From UHGV virus genome UHGV-0112899: 64,000 bases of DNA; one strand, written 5' to 3'. The notes under the pieces are model-generated. The model did not search any database. It saw only the letters and a program-made list of their open reading frames with translations, and had not been told where the DNA came from. The stretch's first letter is position 1. Each line of letters opens with the position of its first letter. The translations under genes were made by a program, and so were the position numbers. Of the stretch, positions 3,018 to 52,890 are shown piece by piece. The DNA comes from a virus.

Positions 3018-3593
3018 ATGAAGCAAAGCTATTGGGAGAAACAGACACAAAAAGCCCTGCAAAAACTGGCTGATCCGAAATGGCGGGAGGAACAAAGGGC
3101 AAAGCGTCTTCAGCAAGCTCAACGCCAGCAGCAGCGTGCGCGAGAAAAAGCCGCATCGCCTGAATATCGGCAAAAGAAAATTGAAAAAGCGAAGCAATAT
3201 GAACAGCGAAGAAAAGAGAAGGCCGCTTCTGCTCCTGTCAAAAAAACTCGCGCGTCACGCGGCCTGAAAGGCAGAACACTCACAGCAGATGAGCGCCGGA
3301 TACAAACTGCCATCGGTGCTCTCCCCTGCATTGCCTGCCATATGCACGGACAGCATAGCCCTGTGGTATCCCTGCACCACATCTTCGGGAGAACAGCAGA
3401 GAACGCGCATAAATACGTCCTCCCTTTGTGTAAATGGCACCATCAACACGCAGCGCCAGCAGAGATCCGCGAGCAATACCCCTGGTTGGTTCCTGTTCAT
3501 GCTGATGGAAAAATAGGCGGCAAAGCAGATTTCAGGCGGCACAATGCTGATGAAATGACGTTGTATCAGATGGTGACTGAATTAATAAATTAA
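3018..3593 (+). CDS. HNH-motif protein with basic N-terminus, Ref-like (DUF968-like)
   Basis: Lys/Arg/Gln-rich N-terminal half, then CIACHMHG...HHIFG...CKWHH Cys/His cluster; ATG at 3018. Confidence 0.45.
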   Translation: MKQSYWEKQTQKALQKLADPKWREEQRAKRLQQAQRQQQRAREKAASPEYRQKKIEKAKQYEQRRKEKAASAPVKKTRASRGLKGRTLTADERRIQTAIGALPCIACHMHGQHSPVVSLHHIFGRTAENAHKYVLPLCKWHHQHAAPAEIREQYPWLVPVHADGKIGGKADFRRHNADEMTLYQMVTELIN

Positions 3594-3607
3594 TTTTCTA
3601 ACATTTT
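3592..3607. promoter_or_regulatory. operator-like motif copy
   Basis: aattttctaacatttt matches the dispersed TGTTAGAAAAT core. Confidence 0.35.
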
Positions 3608-3924
3608 AAGTTGAATTGTGAGATCCACCGTTGTACATTCACAACCGATTGGTACACCGGTCAACTTTTTGAGACAAACCGTTTGGTTTTTCGTATGATT
3701 GCCGCCGCCATACCAATGGCGGTGCAATATAGGTGGCTGAAAAGCCCCCGTTGACTCACGGTGTTCCAGCCTTTATTGCGCCGCCACCAGACCGTGGAAC
3801 AGTCGATGGCGGCTCCGAAAGCAAGGAGTCACTACACTATGAACAGCTACTGTCTTTTCCCATCACTCGTTGTCCGCCACTCACGCGATAATCTGCATTC
3901 TTTACTCGCGCTGGGGGTGTCAAA

Positions 3925-6422: not shown

Positions 6423-7052
6423 TTAATTAGTACAATTCATTTTTGCAGCGACTTCGGCTACCCCACGATCAATGTAAGGCTGCTCACTTAATATCTTTTG
6501 GATCTCACTACGAATGCATTCCGCTGTAGGTTGCTTAGGTGCTTGTTTTTGCTTCGCGGATCGTTCAAGTTCCATCATGTTATTGAATCCTGCCACATCA
6601 CTTTGCCGAAGCATCCCTTTCCGGATAAGAAACTGCTGCCCTTCAGGCACCCAAGCCAGCATATACAAAGGCTGCAATAGATCTCCCATTCCTTGCTGAC
6701 GATAAAGCTCAAACTGCAACACGCCGTTACTTAACACCGACATTGTGTCTTTGGTGGAATACCCTGTCTTTTGTATGGCTTTGCCTGTTTCATCTGCTGC
6801 ATATGCAAATACACAGAACTCAATGTTGCTTTTAAAGAATGGCTCTACAGGTTTCAGCGGGATATTTTCTTTCTGGCAATAGTTTGAAACTTCATCAGGC
6901 GTATAGTTTGTTTTGGCGTTTCGCAACACCTTCAGCCCAGCCTCATACTTTGCAGGTAACGCGCCTGCATAGGCAGCATTAAGAGAAACTCCCCCCAATA
7001 TAACCGCGAGCACTGCTCCCAAAACCCTTAACTTCACAAAACCATCCTTCAT
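6423..7052 (-). CDS. secreted protein of unknown function
   Basis: signal peptide MKDGFVKLRVLGAVLAVILGGVSLNAAYA; same operon as 5936-6379. Confidence 0.5.
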   Translation of the reverse strand: MKDGFVKLRVLGAVLAVILGGVSLNAAYAGALPAKYEAGLKVLRNAKTNYTPDEVSNYCQKENIPLKPVEPFFKSNIEFCVFAYAADETGKAIQKTGYSTKDTMSVLSNGVLQFELYRQQGMGDLLQPLYMLAWVPEGQQFLIRKGMLRQSDVAGFNNMMELERSAKQKQAPKQPTAECIRSEIQKILSEQPYIDRGVAEVAAKMNCTN

Positions 7053-47083: not shown

Positions 47084-50000
47084 TTGAACAAGTCAGTTAC
47101 TTCCGCGCTATCCGAAGCAGCAGACATTAACAGTGTTATTGCGCTGGTTTCTTCATTAGAGAGGCGAGAAACACGCCAGGGGCGCAGTAGTTACGTAGTC
47201 ACCAGTAAAGGGGCAGAGGTAAAGACGGCTTTTAAGGTCGTTGATGCCAGCAGTCTGATCATTTCGAACAACCTTGACGGTACGATTAATCCGGCCTTCC
47301 CGGAAGAACTCCAACCACGAGATCGTACCCGGCTATCCAGCAAACTCCAGGTTAACCGTATTGCCTCCAATTTACGCCCGGCACAATTAACGGATTCCGG
47401 TATGAGCAGCCACGGAGCGCCGATAGTTGGTCCGGACAACGTTGTTGAATCCGGCAACGGAAGGAGTATGGGTATCTGGCGTGCCTATGAGCAAGGACAG
47501 GCGGATGAGTATCGCCAGTACCTGATCGACCATGCGAAAGAGTTTGGTCTGAATCCTGACGAAATTTCGCAAATGTCTATGCCCGTACTGGTGCGAGAAA
47601 GACTCACAGATGTAGACCGCGCTCAATTTGCCCGCGATTCAAACATTAGCGATCTGCAAGAGATGGCAGCAAGTGAAAAAGCGTATGCGGATGCGCAATT
47701 TCTCACTGAGAGCGTCATGGCGCTATTTAATCCTTCAGATGATGGAAATCTGCTGGCGCGGTCCAATGATGCGTTTATTCGTGCGTTTTTGCGCGAAATT
47801 GGCGATACAGCGACGGCAGGCTTGCTTACTGCCGATGGGCGTCCCACGAAACAGCTTATCGATCGCATCCAGAATGCAATTTTTGCCAAAGCGTACAAGG
47901 ATGAAAGGCTTGTTCGGTTGGTGGCGGAAGAGCCAGATCCGGAAATGCGTAACATCCTTACCGCATTAAATACGGCAGCCAGCGATTTTGCGCAAATGCA
48001 GTCGCTTTCAGGTGATGTTCACCATGACACGGTAACCGGACTGGTAGACGGTATAGAGCAATTGAATGGTCTGGATAAACAGGCTATTGCCGCGCTACAG
48101 GAAGCAATTAACCTTGTTCGTGAAGCAAAAGATAACGGTCAGGCAGTAGAAGAGGTGATCGCACAGCGTGGATTGTTTGGAGATAGCACTCCGGAAGCAG
48201 AAGCGCTTGCTCTGTTTATTGTTGCCAACAACCGAAGCGCTAAGCGAATGGGGGCAGCTTTCAAGAAACTGGCGCAAAAAATTAACGATGAACTTATTCA
48301 CCAGCAACAAGCGTTAGGCGATATGTTCGGCGGCGGAGATGTCGATCTGCGTAGCATTTTATCTGCCGTTTCTGATGAAATTGAGGCTGAGTATGGCGAA
48401 GGTAAAGGGCTTAATTTCGCCATGTTCGAATCGGTTTCGGGAGATGTCGAACCATACATTTCAAAGCTAATTGCTGATGCGACCAGCGTGGAGGACTTGA
48501 TCCGAATCGTGAAGGCGTCAGAAAAAATTAAGGAGTCCGCAAAAAAAATAAAGCGCAATGTATTTTTGGAACTTGGTTTTTATATTCGCAATGTCACCGT
48601 TAATGAGATTAAGGCGTGGGCTAAACGTTATGGATACAGCAACGCTGTGTTAACAACGATGTTATTGTCTTATCAACGCAGCAATTTTTATGCTAACGCA
48701 CTGCGTGACGCGATTGAAAAAGGAGATGAAGCTCCTTCACTCGCAGATGAAAGAAATATTGATTGTGACATTGAAACGTTTTGCAATATGTCAGAAGAAG
48801 GCGTGCCCGCTGAACAATTTATACGTGTTTTACATAATGCAGCAAAACATATTCCTGATGACTTTAGCATTGATGAATTGCGCAATGGTTGTCTTGTTTG
48901 GTTAGGTAACTATTTAAAATCTCCAGCGTCTATTGCAGAGAAAACAGCTTTAAGATTTAGAAAGGAAATGAATAAAGCTGGAAGCGCAGAAGAGATGGTG
49001 CGCATAATCCAAAATACTTTGAAGTTATTCAAAAAGAGCTTGCATAATATCAACGATATTATGGCGGCTGGTAGGAAAATAACAGCCAGCGTCGGAGTTA
49101 GCTCCGAACTAACGGCAGAGGAGATCGCTGATGCGTATATTGAGACACTTGTCAGGCTTAAGGAGATAGTGGAATTAGCAGAGCATTCCTCATATTACGG
49201 AATCAAGGAGCGCGTTGACTTTACTATAGAACAAATCAATAAAGTTAGGTCAAATAAGGAAAAACTCACTGACTACCTTGCTGAGGTTTTGCACCAGAAT
49301 GATCATGGGATTGGATATGATCTGAAAAAAATGCTTGTTTTTAATCTGGACATACCGGAAGACTTGCAAGCAGAATTATATGAAATAGCTTCATTAACAC
49401 GTGGACAAAAAGCCTATCCTAATGCGCTTGAAAATGTAGTACATAAAAAAGTCAGAGCCGCATTTGACATGATTCTTGAATCGTCAAATGTGTCACATGA
49501 CCAGTCTAAGGAATGGAGTCGTGGGATTGCTATTTCTGATGAAGCAGAGCAGTTAAGTGGTCACGATAATGAAACTTTCTCCCGTAAAGCATACAGTATT
49601 CGCGAGACAATTGAAAAAGCCTATATTATTTCAGGAGGGACTTTATCTACATTAAAAAATATTAACCACAAGAACAATGTTCGTGCTTTTGCAAGTCGAA
49701 ATGGGAATATAACAATTGATGCTAATAGTGATCATGAGCGTGTATTATGGCATGAAATAGGTCACCATATAGAACATTCAAATCCCCATCTATTGGAGAG
49801 GGCCAAAGCCTTCATTAAATCAAAAACTAACGGTAAAGTTTCTTATCATAATATTGGTAGCCGTGGCAGTGCTGAGTATTTGGTGCGAACCGACCTAAGT
49901 CATGGATATATGTCTAAAATTTATATGGAAAATACGGTAAGTTCTGTCAGCGGCAGATTTATATCAAAGCCACCTGCATTAAGCAATTGCAGGGCGACTG

Positions 50001-50125
50001 AGATTTTTTCTATGGCCTTGCAGATGTATGCCGATCCTGAGCAGGCGACTAACTCTGTATTAAACAATGACGGCGTGCTGGAATTTTTCTTGGGATGTAT
50101 GAAGGAGTTGCAAAATGAAGTATAG
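47084..50125 (+). CDS. DdrB-like large protein with HExxH motif
   Basis: 1013 aa; HEIGHH at about nt 49751-49768; operon position matches ddrB; TTG start. Confidence 0.4.
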   Translation: MNKSVTSALSEAADINSVIALVSSLERRETRQGRSSYVVTSKGAEVKTAFKVVDASSLIISNNLDGTINPAFPEELQPRDRTRLSSKLQVNRIASNLRPAQLTDSGMSSHGAPIVGPDNVVESGNGRSMGIWRAYEQGQADEYRQYLIDHAKEFGLNPDEISQMSMPVLVRERLTDVDRAQFARDSNISDLQEMAASEKAYADAQFLTESVMALFNPSDDGNLLARSNDAFIRAFLREIGDTATAGLLTADGRPTKQLIDRIQNAIFAKAYKDERLVRLVAEEPDPEMRNILTALNTAASDFAQMQSLSGDVHHDTVTGLVDGIEQLNGLDKQAIAALQEAINLVREAKDNGQAVEEVIAQRGLFGDSTPEAEALALFIVANNRSAKRMGAAFKKLAQKINDELIHQQQALGDMFGGGDVDLRSILSAVSDEIEAEYGEGKGLNFAMFESVSGDVEPYISKLIADATSVEDLIRIVKASEKIKESAKKIKRNVFLELGFYIRNVTVNEIKAWAKRYGYSNAVLTTMLLSYQRSNFYANALRDAIEKGDEAPSLADERNIDCDIETFCNMSEEGVPAEQFIRVLHNAAKHIPDDFSIDELRNGCLVWLGNYLKSPASIAEKTALRFRKEMNKAGSAEEMVRIIQNTLKLFKKSLHNINDIMAAGRKITASVGVSSELTAEEIADAYIETLVRLKEIVELAEHSSYYGIKERVDFTIEQINKVRSNKEKLTDYLAEVLHQNDHGIGYDLKKMLVFNLDIPEDLQAELYEIASLTRGQKAYPNALENVVHKKVRAAFDMILESSNVSHDQSKEWSRGIAISDEAEQLSGHDNETFSRKAYSIRETIEKAYIISGGTLSTLKNINHKNNVRAFASRNGNITIDANSDHERVLWHEIGHHIEHSNPHLLERAKAFIKSKTNGKVSYHNIGSRGSAEYLVRTDLSHGYMSKIYMENTVSSVSGRFISKPPALSNCRATEIFSMALQMYADPEQATNSVLNNDGVLEFFLGCMKELQNEV

Positions 50126-50408
50126 CATTGTGAGTCCCGCTGGGATTAGAGGGATTGTTGAATGCTCTGATGACGGCACATTGCGTATATTTGAAGGCGA
50201 TATTTCGGAAGAAAATATTGCGCAAGATTTACGCTTTATCAACACAAATTCCGCAATGGGGATCGTGAATACCATTCATGCCGATGGGGTGTTTGTTCTG
50301 CGGAGCCTGGAAACTGTTGGCTGGGAGGTTGAGTGGCCAGAGGTGGAAGGAGATCCTGACGACGAAGACGATACTGGCGAATCATATCAAGACATTGATG
50401 TGAATTGA
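50115..50408 (+). CDS. small acidic protein
   Basis: 97 aa with acidic C-terminus DPDDEDDTGESYQDIDVN; AGGAG RBS; overlaps the previous gene end. Confidence 0.5.
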   Translation: MKYSIVSPAGIRGIVECSDDGTLRIFEGDISEENIAQDLRFINTNSAMGIVNTIHADGVFVLRSLETVGWEVEWPEVEGDPDDEDDTGESYQDIDVN

Positions 50409-50421
50409 TATGATTGATAAT

Positions 50422-50444
50422 CCCGCCGTCAGGCGGGTTTTTTT
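50422..50444 (+). terminator. rho-independent terminator
   Basis: stem cccgcc/ggcggg with gtca loop followed by T7. Confidence 0.65.
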
Positions 50445-50706
50445 AGCGTGGTGTAAGAATAAATTCAGGATGCTCTCCAGCAAGCAATAACAGGTACTCA
50501 AATTCACCAGCCATAAGGCGTCTCGGTTTATTTCTATCTTCTTTGAATTGCCAAGCCCGGAGTTGATACCCCATTTTGTGGGCTAACTCCGTTTGCGTTA
50601 GCCCCATTCGCTGGCGGATTTCAATTATGGTTTCCGGGGTGTTTGGTGGGAGTTGTTTCACAATATGCCCTTTGCCAATGCTGTGATTCGCAACGAAGTA
50701 TATCAT
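50443..50706 (-). CDS. XRE-family HTH protein
   Basis: 87 aa; IIEIRQRMGLTQTELAHKMG helix-turn-helix. Confidence 0.55.
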   Translation of the reverse strand: MIYFVANHSIGKGHIVKQLPPNTPETIIEIRQRMGLTQTELAHKMGYQLRAWQFKEDRNKPRRLMAGEFEYLLLLAGEHPEFILTPR

Positions 50707-50718
50707 CGTTGAATCGAT

Positions 50719-51023
50719 TCACAGAGCTGCGCCGAACAGACCGCAGCATGGCATCCCTTCATCACAGTACCTGGCCCATTCTTTTTGGCATTCTTCTGTT
50801 TGCGCGTATTGGCTTAACGCGTCATCCAGCATATCCCAGGCCTTATAGGAATCCTCTGCAACGCTAAACAAAGTCCTGCCTTCCCGGCTTAGAATTTGCA
50901 GATTGTAAATGTTTTCATTGCTCAGACATGCGTGGCTGATATGCATGTAAACCGACCATGCAGGAACTCGATTTTTGATAGCAAGTTGGTGTAATTTGGA
51001 ATTAATTAAAGAGCTTTTCATGG
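50719..51023 (-). CDS. hypothetical protein upstream of the HTH gene
   Basis: 101 aa from ATG 51023 with GGAG RBS; 12-nt gap to the HTH gene. Confidence 0.4.
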
Positions 51024-51204
51024 GATTTCTCCGCAGCAAAGTGGTCAACTTTTTCAATCTTAATACGCACAATGTGCATATGCAAGTTTTATTCTTCACT
51101 TTGTTACGAGAGGGGCCAGCCAATATTTCTAGTTGAAAAGATCCATCATCAAAAATCACATACTGATTATGCTGCCGCAAACTGAAAACATTTCGCGGTG
51201 ACTC

Positions 51205-52890
51205 ATGGCAACGAAAGACAAAAACAAAGGCTTTCTGTCGGCATTGAAGAAAGCCTTCAACAGTGGCGATGTCACGCCTGCTGATCCGGTCGTTTTTACA
51301 AGCGGTCATAGTGTCGTTGCGCGTTCTGGTCTGTCTGCTTTACGTCCGGGTATCCTGGGTGGCAATAGCGATGGCATGACAAGCGCGGCAGATACAGTAT
51401 CAATTTCGGCAGAACTGCCCGGCGACCGCCTGCAAAAATACAACATACTGGAGACGATGGCGAAAAGTCCGACTATCTCCACAGCATTAAACATTCACAT
51501 TGCGCATTCTCTGGCTCCATCAAAAAAAACAGGCCTCGCATTTATTCTCGCTCCGAAAAATGGGGCAGATAAGGAGGCTGTAAGTCGATGTGAGGAATTG
51601 ACCGCTGATTTAAGCTCAATGATTAATGATGGCCTGCCATCGTGGGCCATGATCATGGCTATTTTCGGTGTGTCGTATATCCGTCCATATGCAGAGCAAG
51701 GGAAGGGGATAACTGGAATTGAGTCGAGCTATTACACGCTCCCTCATTTCGTTCAGGAGTTTTATCGCGGTAGCCAACTTGTCGGATTCAGCGGTGATTA
51801 CATTCTGGATACGCATACTTTGCGCAGAGTTATAACCGAACCATGGAATCTGGTTTCCATGAAAAACCCGTACTGGACGCCTCAGCATAATGTAATGCCA
51901 GTAACTTACGGCACTAAAGGCTATTCCTTGCTTAGTGAACAGCAGGACAAGCCGTTAATGGAGACGCAGAACTACGGTACGTCATTTCTTGAATACAGTT
52001 ATGAACCCTACCTGAATTTATGTGCCGCGCTTGCTGCGCTGAAAGCAACGCGAAACAACGCTGCAAAAATTGATCGCCTGATTGCACTCACAACGAACAC
52101 GATAGATCCGGTAAATGCGGCGAATTATACGCGCGGGGTCAGCCAGGCACTGAAGCGTCATAGCGACCTCGTAGCGCAACGGTCGATTAATTCTAATGCT
52201 CTCCCATCTGTACTTAACCATCTGATACCCGTCATGGGGGATGGGAAGAACGGGATCACCATTGATACGCAATCTATACCCGCAGATATCAGTGGTATCG
52301 AAGACGTTATGTTTCATCTCCGACAGCTCGCGGCAAGCCTCGGTATTGACGCAACAATGCTTGGCTGGGCTGATCAGATGAGTGGTGGACTTGGAGAAGG
52401 CGGTTGGCAGCAAACAGCTATCCAGGCCGCCTTACGCGCGAACTGGATCAGACAGGCCGCCCAGCGGACTATTTATCGGCTTCATGACATTCACCTCGCT
52501 TATAAATACGGGAAGGTTTACACCGAAAAAAACCGTCCTTATGACGTGCAATTCAACTCAATGAACACAGCTATCCAGGAAGAGGAAAACCGAGAGCTGG
52601 ATGCGCGCGCCAACTTCGTAGCTGTCATCTCGCAAATAATGGACCAGATCCAGAACAACCCGAAACTGGCGGGTAGCGACGCGTTTATGCGTTATCTGTT
52701 CACCGAACAGCTTTGTATCGACGATGACACTCTCAACGTAATGATCAAAGAGTTTAAAGCGAATGAATCAGAGCAAAACAACGAGCATGGTATGTACGAA
52801 TCCGCGCCGTTGTCGTCCGGTGACGATCCGGAAAACTGGACGCAAGAACAATTAATCAACTTTGCAAAATTTGTGATGAGCAATAATTAA
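51205..52890 (+). CDS. putative portal protein
   Basis: 561 aa without Walker motifs, followed by a protease/scaffold-like gene; assignment by context. Confidence 0.35.
   Translation: MATKDKNKGFLSALKKAFNSGDVTPADPVVFTSGHSVVARSGLSALRPGILGGNSDGMTSAADTVSISAELPGDRLQKYNILETMAKSPTISTALNIHIAHSLAPSKKTGLAFILAPKNGADKEAVSRCEELTADLSSMINDGLPSWAMIMAIFGVSYIRPYAEQGKGITGIESSYYTLPHFVQEFYRGSQLVGFSGDYILDTHTLRRVITEPWNLVSMKNPYWTPQHNVMPVTYGTKGYSLLSEQQDKPLMETQNYGTSFLEYSYEPYLNLCAALAALKATRNNAAKIDRLIALTTNTIDPVNAANYTRGVSQALKRHSDLVAQRSINSNALPSVLNHLIPVMGDGKNGITIDTQSIPADISGIEDVMFHLRQLAASLGIDATMLGWADQMSGGLGEGGWQQTAIQAALRANWIRQAAQRTIYRLHDIHLAYKYGKVYTEKNRPYDVQFNSMNTAIQEEENRELDARANFVAVISQIMDQIQNNPKLAGSDAFMRYLFTEQLCIDDDTLNVMIKEFKANESEQNNEHGMYESAPLSSGDDPENWTQEQLINFAKFVMSNN

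Follow-up and report, generated by a model that had tools for sequence, protein, structure and literature searches.

A D6-like, P1-related E. coli phage-plasmid carries two small adjacent genes on its minus strand, with the Dar anti-restriction operon on one side and the portal gene on the other. The first encodes a protein of no recognisable family and the second encodes an HTH protein. Is this pair a toxin-antitoxin (TA) system, a regulator of the phage life cycle, the remnant of a larger operon, or a cargo gene that travels with its own repressor? The question is examined here for the module found in a window of 64,000 nucleotides (the window is the whole stretch of DNA that was analysed). 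Module: geneA and the HTH gene 3′ of it, both on the minus strand. geneA: name given to the first gene. Related loci are designated by L and a number.

The best explanation found for the module, given a probability of about 0.5, is a small, accessory and horizontally mobile operon of a D6/P1-type phage-plasmid that is under negative autoregulation by an Aca-like repressor accompanying the cargo.

Position and gene structure

On one side, the module is flanked by lydB-hdf-darA-ddrA, the long ddrB and the gene of a 97-aa acidic protein, in this order; prt, pro, repL and icd are found on the other side. The features are listed in Table 1. A preliminary description of the same DNA had placed the module at 50443-51023, with a first protein of 101 aa. 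Two co-directional minus-strand ORFs are indeed present, but position 51023 is out of frame and the first protein has 100 aa when read from its ATG. The divergence from the portal gene that was described there is correct, and the intergenic region measures 183 nt.

Table 1. Features of the module and of its immediate neighbours in the window.
Feature	Position	Strand	Details
geneA, 100-aa orphan protein	50719..51021	-	ATG 51021; stop TGA 50719-50721; Shine-Dalgarno GGAGA 51028-51032
XRE-type HTH repressor (putative), 72 aa	50443..50661	-	GTG 50661; Shine-Dalgarno AAAGGG 50668-50673; stop TAA 50443-50445
Predicted sigma-70-type promoter	51057..51085	-	-35 TTGCAT 51080-51085; 17-nt spacer; -10 TAAGAT 51057-51062; sequence reading
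Predicted operator GCACAATGTGC	51067..51077	.	Conserved dyad GCACA-A-TGTGC in the -35-proximal part of the spacer
Palindrome TGCATATGCA of the preliminary description	51075..51084	.	Overlaps the -35 hexamer and the left operator edge
ddrB, long P1-type DdrB (1013 aa)	47084..50125	+	N-terminal ddrB-ParB domain; Pfam PF18763 E=1e-41
97-aa very acidic protein at the P1 hxr position	50115..50408	+	11-nt overlap with ddrB; PHROG 2292 E=2e-39
prt, portal gene, divergent from the operon	51205..52890	+	PHROG 1497 'portal protein' E=2e-226
G+C-rich hairpin CCCGCCGTCAGGCGGG	50422..50437	.	Between the convergent hxr-like and HTH genes; terminator scan

Two neighbours have features of their own. The C-terminal part of the long DdrB carries an HExxH motif (WHEIGHHIEH). 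The 97-aa protein has a net charge of -18 and a pI of 4.05, and no HTH match was found for it in Pfam. P1 and P7 both have the gene order ddrB-hxr, and P1 hxr is annotated 'homolog of Xre, possible repressor'. This name may be misleading for the 97-aa protein, which looks more like an acidic accessory or packaged protein than like a repressor. Identity of the HTH gene of the module with P1 hxr was considered and rejected, since by position hxr corresponds to the gene of the 97-aa protein that overlaps ddrB.

The hairpin has a T-run on the plus strand; on the minus strand, it is preceded by the stop codon of the HTH gene and by an A-run. It is a probable terminator common to the hxr-like and HTH genes. 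A search of 50000..51400 against Rfam matched no RNA family.

Distribution of the module

The module was found in six of 5,426 complete E. coli genomes, each time on a plasmid of ~90 kb, and on 4 of 121 PLSDB plasmids with a match to the beginning of prt. In each of the four other D6-like plasmids that were examined, the ddrB-like gene is short (~450-461 aa) and prt comes directly next to it. In D6, the place of the module is taken by two unrelated ORFs. Similarity between the window and D6 or most D6-like plasmids restarts at ~51153, which places the promoter region of the operon within the cassette. The long ddrB and hxr are linked to the HTH module in L003, L007, L013, L054, L056 and L068. 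A rare cassette made of the long ddrB, the hxr-like gene, the HTH gene and the cargo agrees with a preprint in which ddrB is reported from only four D6-type sequences (10.1101/2025.09.12.675607).

Copies of the module on independent E. coli plasmids share 98.9-99.5% identity, and the HTH protein sequence is present in 356 index blocks (375 contigs) of an assembly collection. The neighbourhood of the module behaves like a variable accessory region.

Other conflict genes were seen near relatives of the module: a SduA_C (Shedu) protein adjoining ddrB in L007 (7751-8279), a ParE toxin and HTH pair with a CHAP-domain hydrolase near the related region of L003 (1816-2555), and a Tlde1-domain protein near that of L024 (4299-4667).

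The first gene product

The product of geneA is a real protein: its Shine-Dalgarno sequence is strong (6 nt 5′ of the ATG), its motifs VPAW and EC..W.RY..EG.P are kept down to 37% identity, and its AF2 model reaches a pLDDT of 85. The model has an alpha-beta3-alpha2 fold, followed by a tail predicted at low confidence (residues 88-100, 50722..50760, pLDDT 46) and conserved across the family as E-G-x-P-x-x-G-(L/T)-(F/L)-G-x-x-L. This C-terminal tail could be a short partner-binding motif. The protein is mildly acidic (pI 5.5).

The family is tiny and orphan. The earlier statement that the first product has no recognisable family is borne out: no match was found in Pfam, PHROG, NCBIfam or PADLOC, nor among the PDB sequences. 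Three matching clusters were found among 5.8e9 proteins, and ~8 genuine small relatives (94-102 aa) among 1.84e9 cluster representatives. Long matches to P0022 (tetratricopeptide, TPR-like repeats) and P0025 (simple repeats) were also returned by the exhaustive search and were discarded as spurious. No similarity to any known anti-defence protein or known Acr was detected; PADLOC, which models defence systems, was also blank. Solitary homologues of geneA, without HTH gene or DUF905, are found in L071 (an integrase island) and in L078 (a 291-kb Citrobacter plasmid).

The second gene product

The longest ORF of the HTH gene starts at ATG 50706 and encodes 87 aa. The gap of 12 nt between the two genes given in the preliminary description holds for this ORF only. 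In five diverged homologues, translation starts (ATG or TTG) three codons before a conserved LPPNTPE motif, each time behind a Shine-Dalgarno sequence. These N-termini and ribosome-binding sites point to a start at GTG 50661, hence to a 72-aa protein and to a gap of 57 nt. In identical plasmids, PGAP calls a truncated product of 54 aa, named XRE family regulator.

The same fault is seen elsewhere in the family: gene callers cut it at an internal ATG, which gives products of 54-58 aa that have lost helix 1 (L019 ~3445-3671; L001 6444-6608; window 50443..50706). The true starts in this family are GTG or TTG codons located behind Shine-Dalgarno sequences.

The second product is an HTH protein, as had been proposed. 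It matches PHROG 7950 'transcriptional repressor' (E=4e-6), and its AF2 model (pLDDT 87) consists of four helices only, with the motif LTQ.ELA in helix 2. The match to Pfam HTH_3 (17.3 bits) lies below the 23-bit cut-off, and that to the C-terminal part of Pfam MqsA_antitoxin is also sub-threshold. The protein belongs to the XRE / lambda-repressor-like HTH superfamily. Its top PDB sequence matches, all sub-significant, are Aca10 (7xi5, E=0.024), Aca3 (9vt3, E=0.1) and the C-terminal domain of MqsA (E=0.13).

Relatives at 64-78% identity were found in P1/D6-type elements only; a tblastn search of 50,697 phage records with the HTH protein gave a single weak match, in a Yersinia phage. Distant relatives that share a GEFEYLLLLAGEHP motif are found in many Enterobacterales and on at least 3,726 PLSDB plasmids, most of which are conjugative. 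On pOXA-48, the GEFEYLLLLAGEHP-motif protein is a tandem double HTH (L041 5001-5480). On IncX3 (L042 5007-5249) and IncI2 (L043 5004-5246) plasmids, the HTH gene is located at the 3′ end of operons.

The order in these plasmid operons is DnaJ-domain protein, 180-aa protein, 88-aa protein, HTH. The plasmid HTH proteins with this motif are all annotated as hypothetical, with no function given in the annotation.

Constant regulator and variable cargo

Four cargo configurations are found on phage-plasmids. geneA and HTH: the window, ~356 index blocks of E. coli assemblies, and L056. geneA, DUF905 and HTH: L003, L057 and L068, with the DUF905 gene located between the two others (L068 has the DUF905 domain within a product of 161 aa). 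DUF905 and HTH, without geneA: L007 and L054. HTH gene alone, without cargo: L024. In a Klebsiella locus, the upstream region is replaced by an insertion sequence (IS). What stays constant across these loci is the HTH gene, together with a promoter that carries the predicted operator; the cargo is facultative.

These configurations bear on the toxin-first TA reading given in the preliminary description. According to this reading, the pair is a type II system in which geneA encodes the toxin, the HTH protein is both antitoxin and autorepressor, and the phage-plasmid is stabilised by post-segregational killing. The order and sizes of the genes resemble those of mqsRA and higBA, a palindromic operator is predicted in the promoter, and the HTH gene is always downstream of geneA in the phage-plasmid loci that carry geneA. 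The HTH protein also weakly matches the C-terminal domain of MqsA and the HTH models of HipB and of Xre-like antitoxins. The pair is nevertheless not obligate: the HTH gene occurs without geneA in three of the phage-plasmid loci, and the two solitary homologues of geneA have no HTH gene. DUF905 is interposed between the genes in three other loci. Neither the family searches nor the fold searches linked geneA to a toxin, and the HTH protein is modelled as a bare 72-aa four-helix domain that would have no toxin-binding extension, although HipB-like antitoxins are small too. Because the pair is not obligate, DUF905 is interposed, the HTH protein is bare and geneA has no toxin-like feature, a TA system is improbable. 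The preliminary description had also offered a 'small immunity module', and this second wording fits the regulator-plus-cargo layout.

A cargo repertoire of just two families in a fixed order counts against the preferred reading of a self-repressed operon with cargo: what looks like a slot for exchange could instead be a three-gene operon in decay. In a stronger form of this alternative, an ancestral geneA-DUF905-HTH operon would be undergoing piecemeal loss through various deletions, and the version in the window would be a remnant with no current function; the 3-nt deletion in the promoter spacer of the window (see below) speaks in its favour. The state of the module speaks against a remnant. 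Both ORFs are intact and have Shine-Dalgarno sequences, the near-identity of the module across independent plasmids and the presence of the HTH protein sequence in hundreds of contigs have been given above, the motifs of the protein families are kept down to 37-50% identity, and the operator dyad is preserved. A functionless remnant is highly improbable, the least probable of the alternatives considered.

DUF905 as alternative cargo

DUF905 (UPF0401: YkfF, PDB 2hjj; YeeT; YubL): proteins of the leading regions of conjugative plasmids and of CP4-type islands, and slot-mates of geneA. They are among the commonest unknown proteins of plasmid leading regions. The cargo neighbours in L003, L007 and L057 match Pfam PF06006 at 33-75 bits (cut-off 22.3). 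DUF905/UPF0401 is found on >5,000 PLSDB plasmids, in the leading region near ssb, ardA and psiB; on conjugative plasmids, the gene lies upstream of psiB and downstream of ardA or of another antirestriction gene. The association of DUF905 with psiB was noted in a recent paper (PMC12826799).

In L060, L062-L064 and L066, DUF905 is found just upstream of a gene encoding a ~650-aa ParB-like protein, and it follows ssb in L062-L064 and L066. The DUF905/geneA slot of the phage-plasmids likewise adjoins a ParB-superfamily protein (DdrB), which may be a coincidence.

Homology in sequence between geneA and DUF905 was considered and rejected (hhalign probability 0.25%). geneA and two of its homologues gave no match to PF06006 at E<=1, a Foldseek search for a link between the two gave nothing significant, and a word-indexed protein search with the DUF905 protein of L003 returned the query itself only. 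The link is at most suggestive, and is notable mainly because DUF905 genes fill the same slot in sister loci. It is possible, if doubtful, that geneA and DUF905 are two branches of one old fold, whose members would be early-expressed establishment or counter-defence factors under an Aca-like repressor.

Promoter and operator

On the minus strand, the proposed promoter reads TTGCAT (51085-51080), atGCACATTGTGCgtat, TAAGAT (51062-51057). An alternative -10, TATTAA (51060-51065), would leave a spacer of 14 nt. The promoter of the window agrees with the consensus at 7 of 12 positions and is therefore weak. A consensus promoter scan of 50300..51300 found none, and the proposed promoter rests on comparison with homologous loci. 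The layout TTGnnn-16/17-TAnnnT is found in all eight related operons, the window included.

In seven of these eight operons, a dyad lies inside the spacer and abuts the -10. In the window, the eighth, it lies at the upstream edge, toward the -35; it is displaced by 3 nt compared to L003, and the spacer has a 3-nt deletion relative to that locus. This displacement and the weakness of the promoter count against the preferred reading. A (G/C)CAC-N3/4-GT(G/A)(C/G) core is found in the spacer of L003, L007, L054, L024, L057 and L068. Its stricter form, GCAC-N3/4-GTGC, is found in L003 (twice), L007, L024 and L057 (twice), and is degenerate in L068. The intergenic DNA that flanks the core is not alignable by eye between loci. 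In L056, where the HTH protein has diverged further, other perfect dyads occupy the corresponding place of the promoter. The promoters of L007 (~3727) and L054 (~2185) are nearly identical and differ by a symmetric change of the half-sites (GCACaacGTGC vs GTACaacGTAC), which is the kind of change that would be expected for the binding site of a dimer. The IncI2 and IncX3 operons whose last gene encodes a related HTH protein likewise have perfect dyads in the promoter spacer.

The preliminary description had named another element, the 10-bp palindrome TGCATATGCA, with binding of the HTH protein to its region as a check. The palindrome is present in the intergenic promoter region, but it is not conserved: L003 has TGCATAATATGCA at this position and the other related loci have none. 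Conservation is seen instead in the dyad beside it, GCACAATGTGC. The idea of an HTH protein acting on a palindrome of its own promoter is thus supported, with a predicted operator that differs from the one named. TGCATATGCA was rejected as operator because of its absence from related loci. By our own arithmetic, ~0.18 perfect 10-bp palindromes are expected in 183 nt, so that its presence is not improbable. A second exact copy of TGCATATGCA is found at 6798..6807, far from the module.

The predicted operator GCACAATGTGC occurs as a single exact copy in the 64-kb window, inside the promoter of the operon itself, which points to self-regulation. It thereby also argues against a regulator of the life cycle or of immunity, in which the HTH protein would mainly control other genes (for example the prt-pro head genes or ddrB-hxr) or act against incoming related phages, with geneA and DUF905 as passengers or co-factors. 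That reading draws on the persistence of a cargo-free HTH gene in L024, which implies that the regulator may have another target, on the location of the predicted operator in the intergenic region common to prt, on the linkage of the module with the long ddrB and hxr in most loci, and on the wide occurrence of the related HTH family on conjugative plasmids. In L003, L056 and L068, on the other hand, the divergent neighbour of the operon is a CHAP-domain hydrolase gene instead of prt, and the operator moves with the operon. The module is also missing from most D6-like plasmids and is thus not a core regulator. Such a role is unlikely, if less so than a TA system.

Proposed functioning and significance

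The structure of the genes, the distribution of the families, the variation of the cargo and the recurrent promoter-dyad arrangement are observations; for DNA binding, repression and any function of the cargo of the self-repressed operon, we infer the following course. The weak sigma-70 promoter (TTGCAT-17-TAAGAT) would drive geneA, then the gene of the 72-aa XRE-type HTH protein. A dimer of this protein would bind the dyad within the promoter and block RNA polymerase. Entry of the DNA into a repressor-free cell would lead to a pulse of expression, followed by low and steady expression. The HTH gene and the operator-promoter would be a conserved chassis, whose upstream slot accepts geneA, DUF905, both or nothing. 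Aca repressors control acr operons in this way. The cargo would bind a factor of the host or of a rival during establishment or counter-defence; this is the most likely role, and it is suggested by the partner DUF905 and by the place beside the Dar anti-restriction operon. Against it stand the failure to find any known anti-defence protein similar to geneA and the merely mild acidity of the geneA product.

Cargo genes with an HTH autorepressor 3′ of them form a familiar arrangement; the parts found here are uncharacterised. Members of the repressor family occur on thousands of conjugative plasmids of clinical importance (pOXA-48, IncX3, IncI2), and are frequently mis-annotated with truncated starts. 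The conserved promoter-operator offers a simple testable handle on the timing of cargo expression. Guilt by association with the HTH gene could reveal further cargo genes, as Aca proteins did. If geneA and DUF905 do have a common fold and act as early-expressed factors under such a repressor, this would be the first functional handle on DUF905/UPF0401, and a new regulator family would be defined by the GEFEYLLLLAGEHP motif, on >3,700 plasmids that include pOXA-48, IncX3 and IncI2. If the cargo has no role in anti-defence or establishment, the module is merely another small regulated moron of a phage-plasmid.

Comparison with known systems

Known systems were compared with the module. Controller (C) proteins of restriction-modification (R-M) systems: XRE-type HTH dimers of ~80 aa, with dyad operators that overlap their own promoter; they time expression after entry into a new cell. 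Unlike the HTH gene of the module, C genes are usually first in the operon and their products both activate and repress; no R-M genes are found here.

MqsR/MqsA and other toxin-first type II TA systems: the first gene encodes ~100 aa, the HTH gene is second and the operator is palindromic (predicted here). The C-terminal domain of MqsA aligns weakly with residues 8-68 of the HTH protein, which differs from MqsA by the lack of a zinc-binding N-terminal domain that binds the toxin. No match to MqsR or RelE was found for geneA in fold searches, and the pair, unlike theirs, is not obligate.

acr-aca operons: the module differs from them in that two cargo families only are found here, neither resembling a known Acr. 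The similarity of the HTH protein to Aca10 and Aca3 is not significant and is nearly equalled by that to the HTH of the MqsA antitoxin, which counts against the preferred reading and leaves the protein outside the named Aca families. Aca10 itself represses its operon, acrIC7-acrIC6-aca10, as a dimer bound to a 21-bp palindrome in the promoter (PMC9410881). The layout, by contrast, is that of Aca systems: small, poorly conserved and variable cargo, a small HTH gene as the last of the operon, and location on a mobile element. In both, the cargo changes while the HTH gene and the promoter remain constant, and a palindrome in the promoter serves, or is predicted here to serve, as the site of the repressor.
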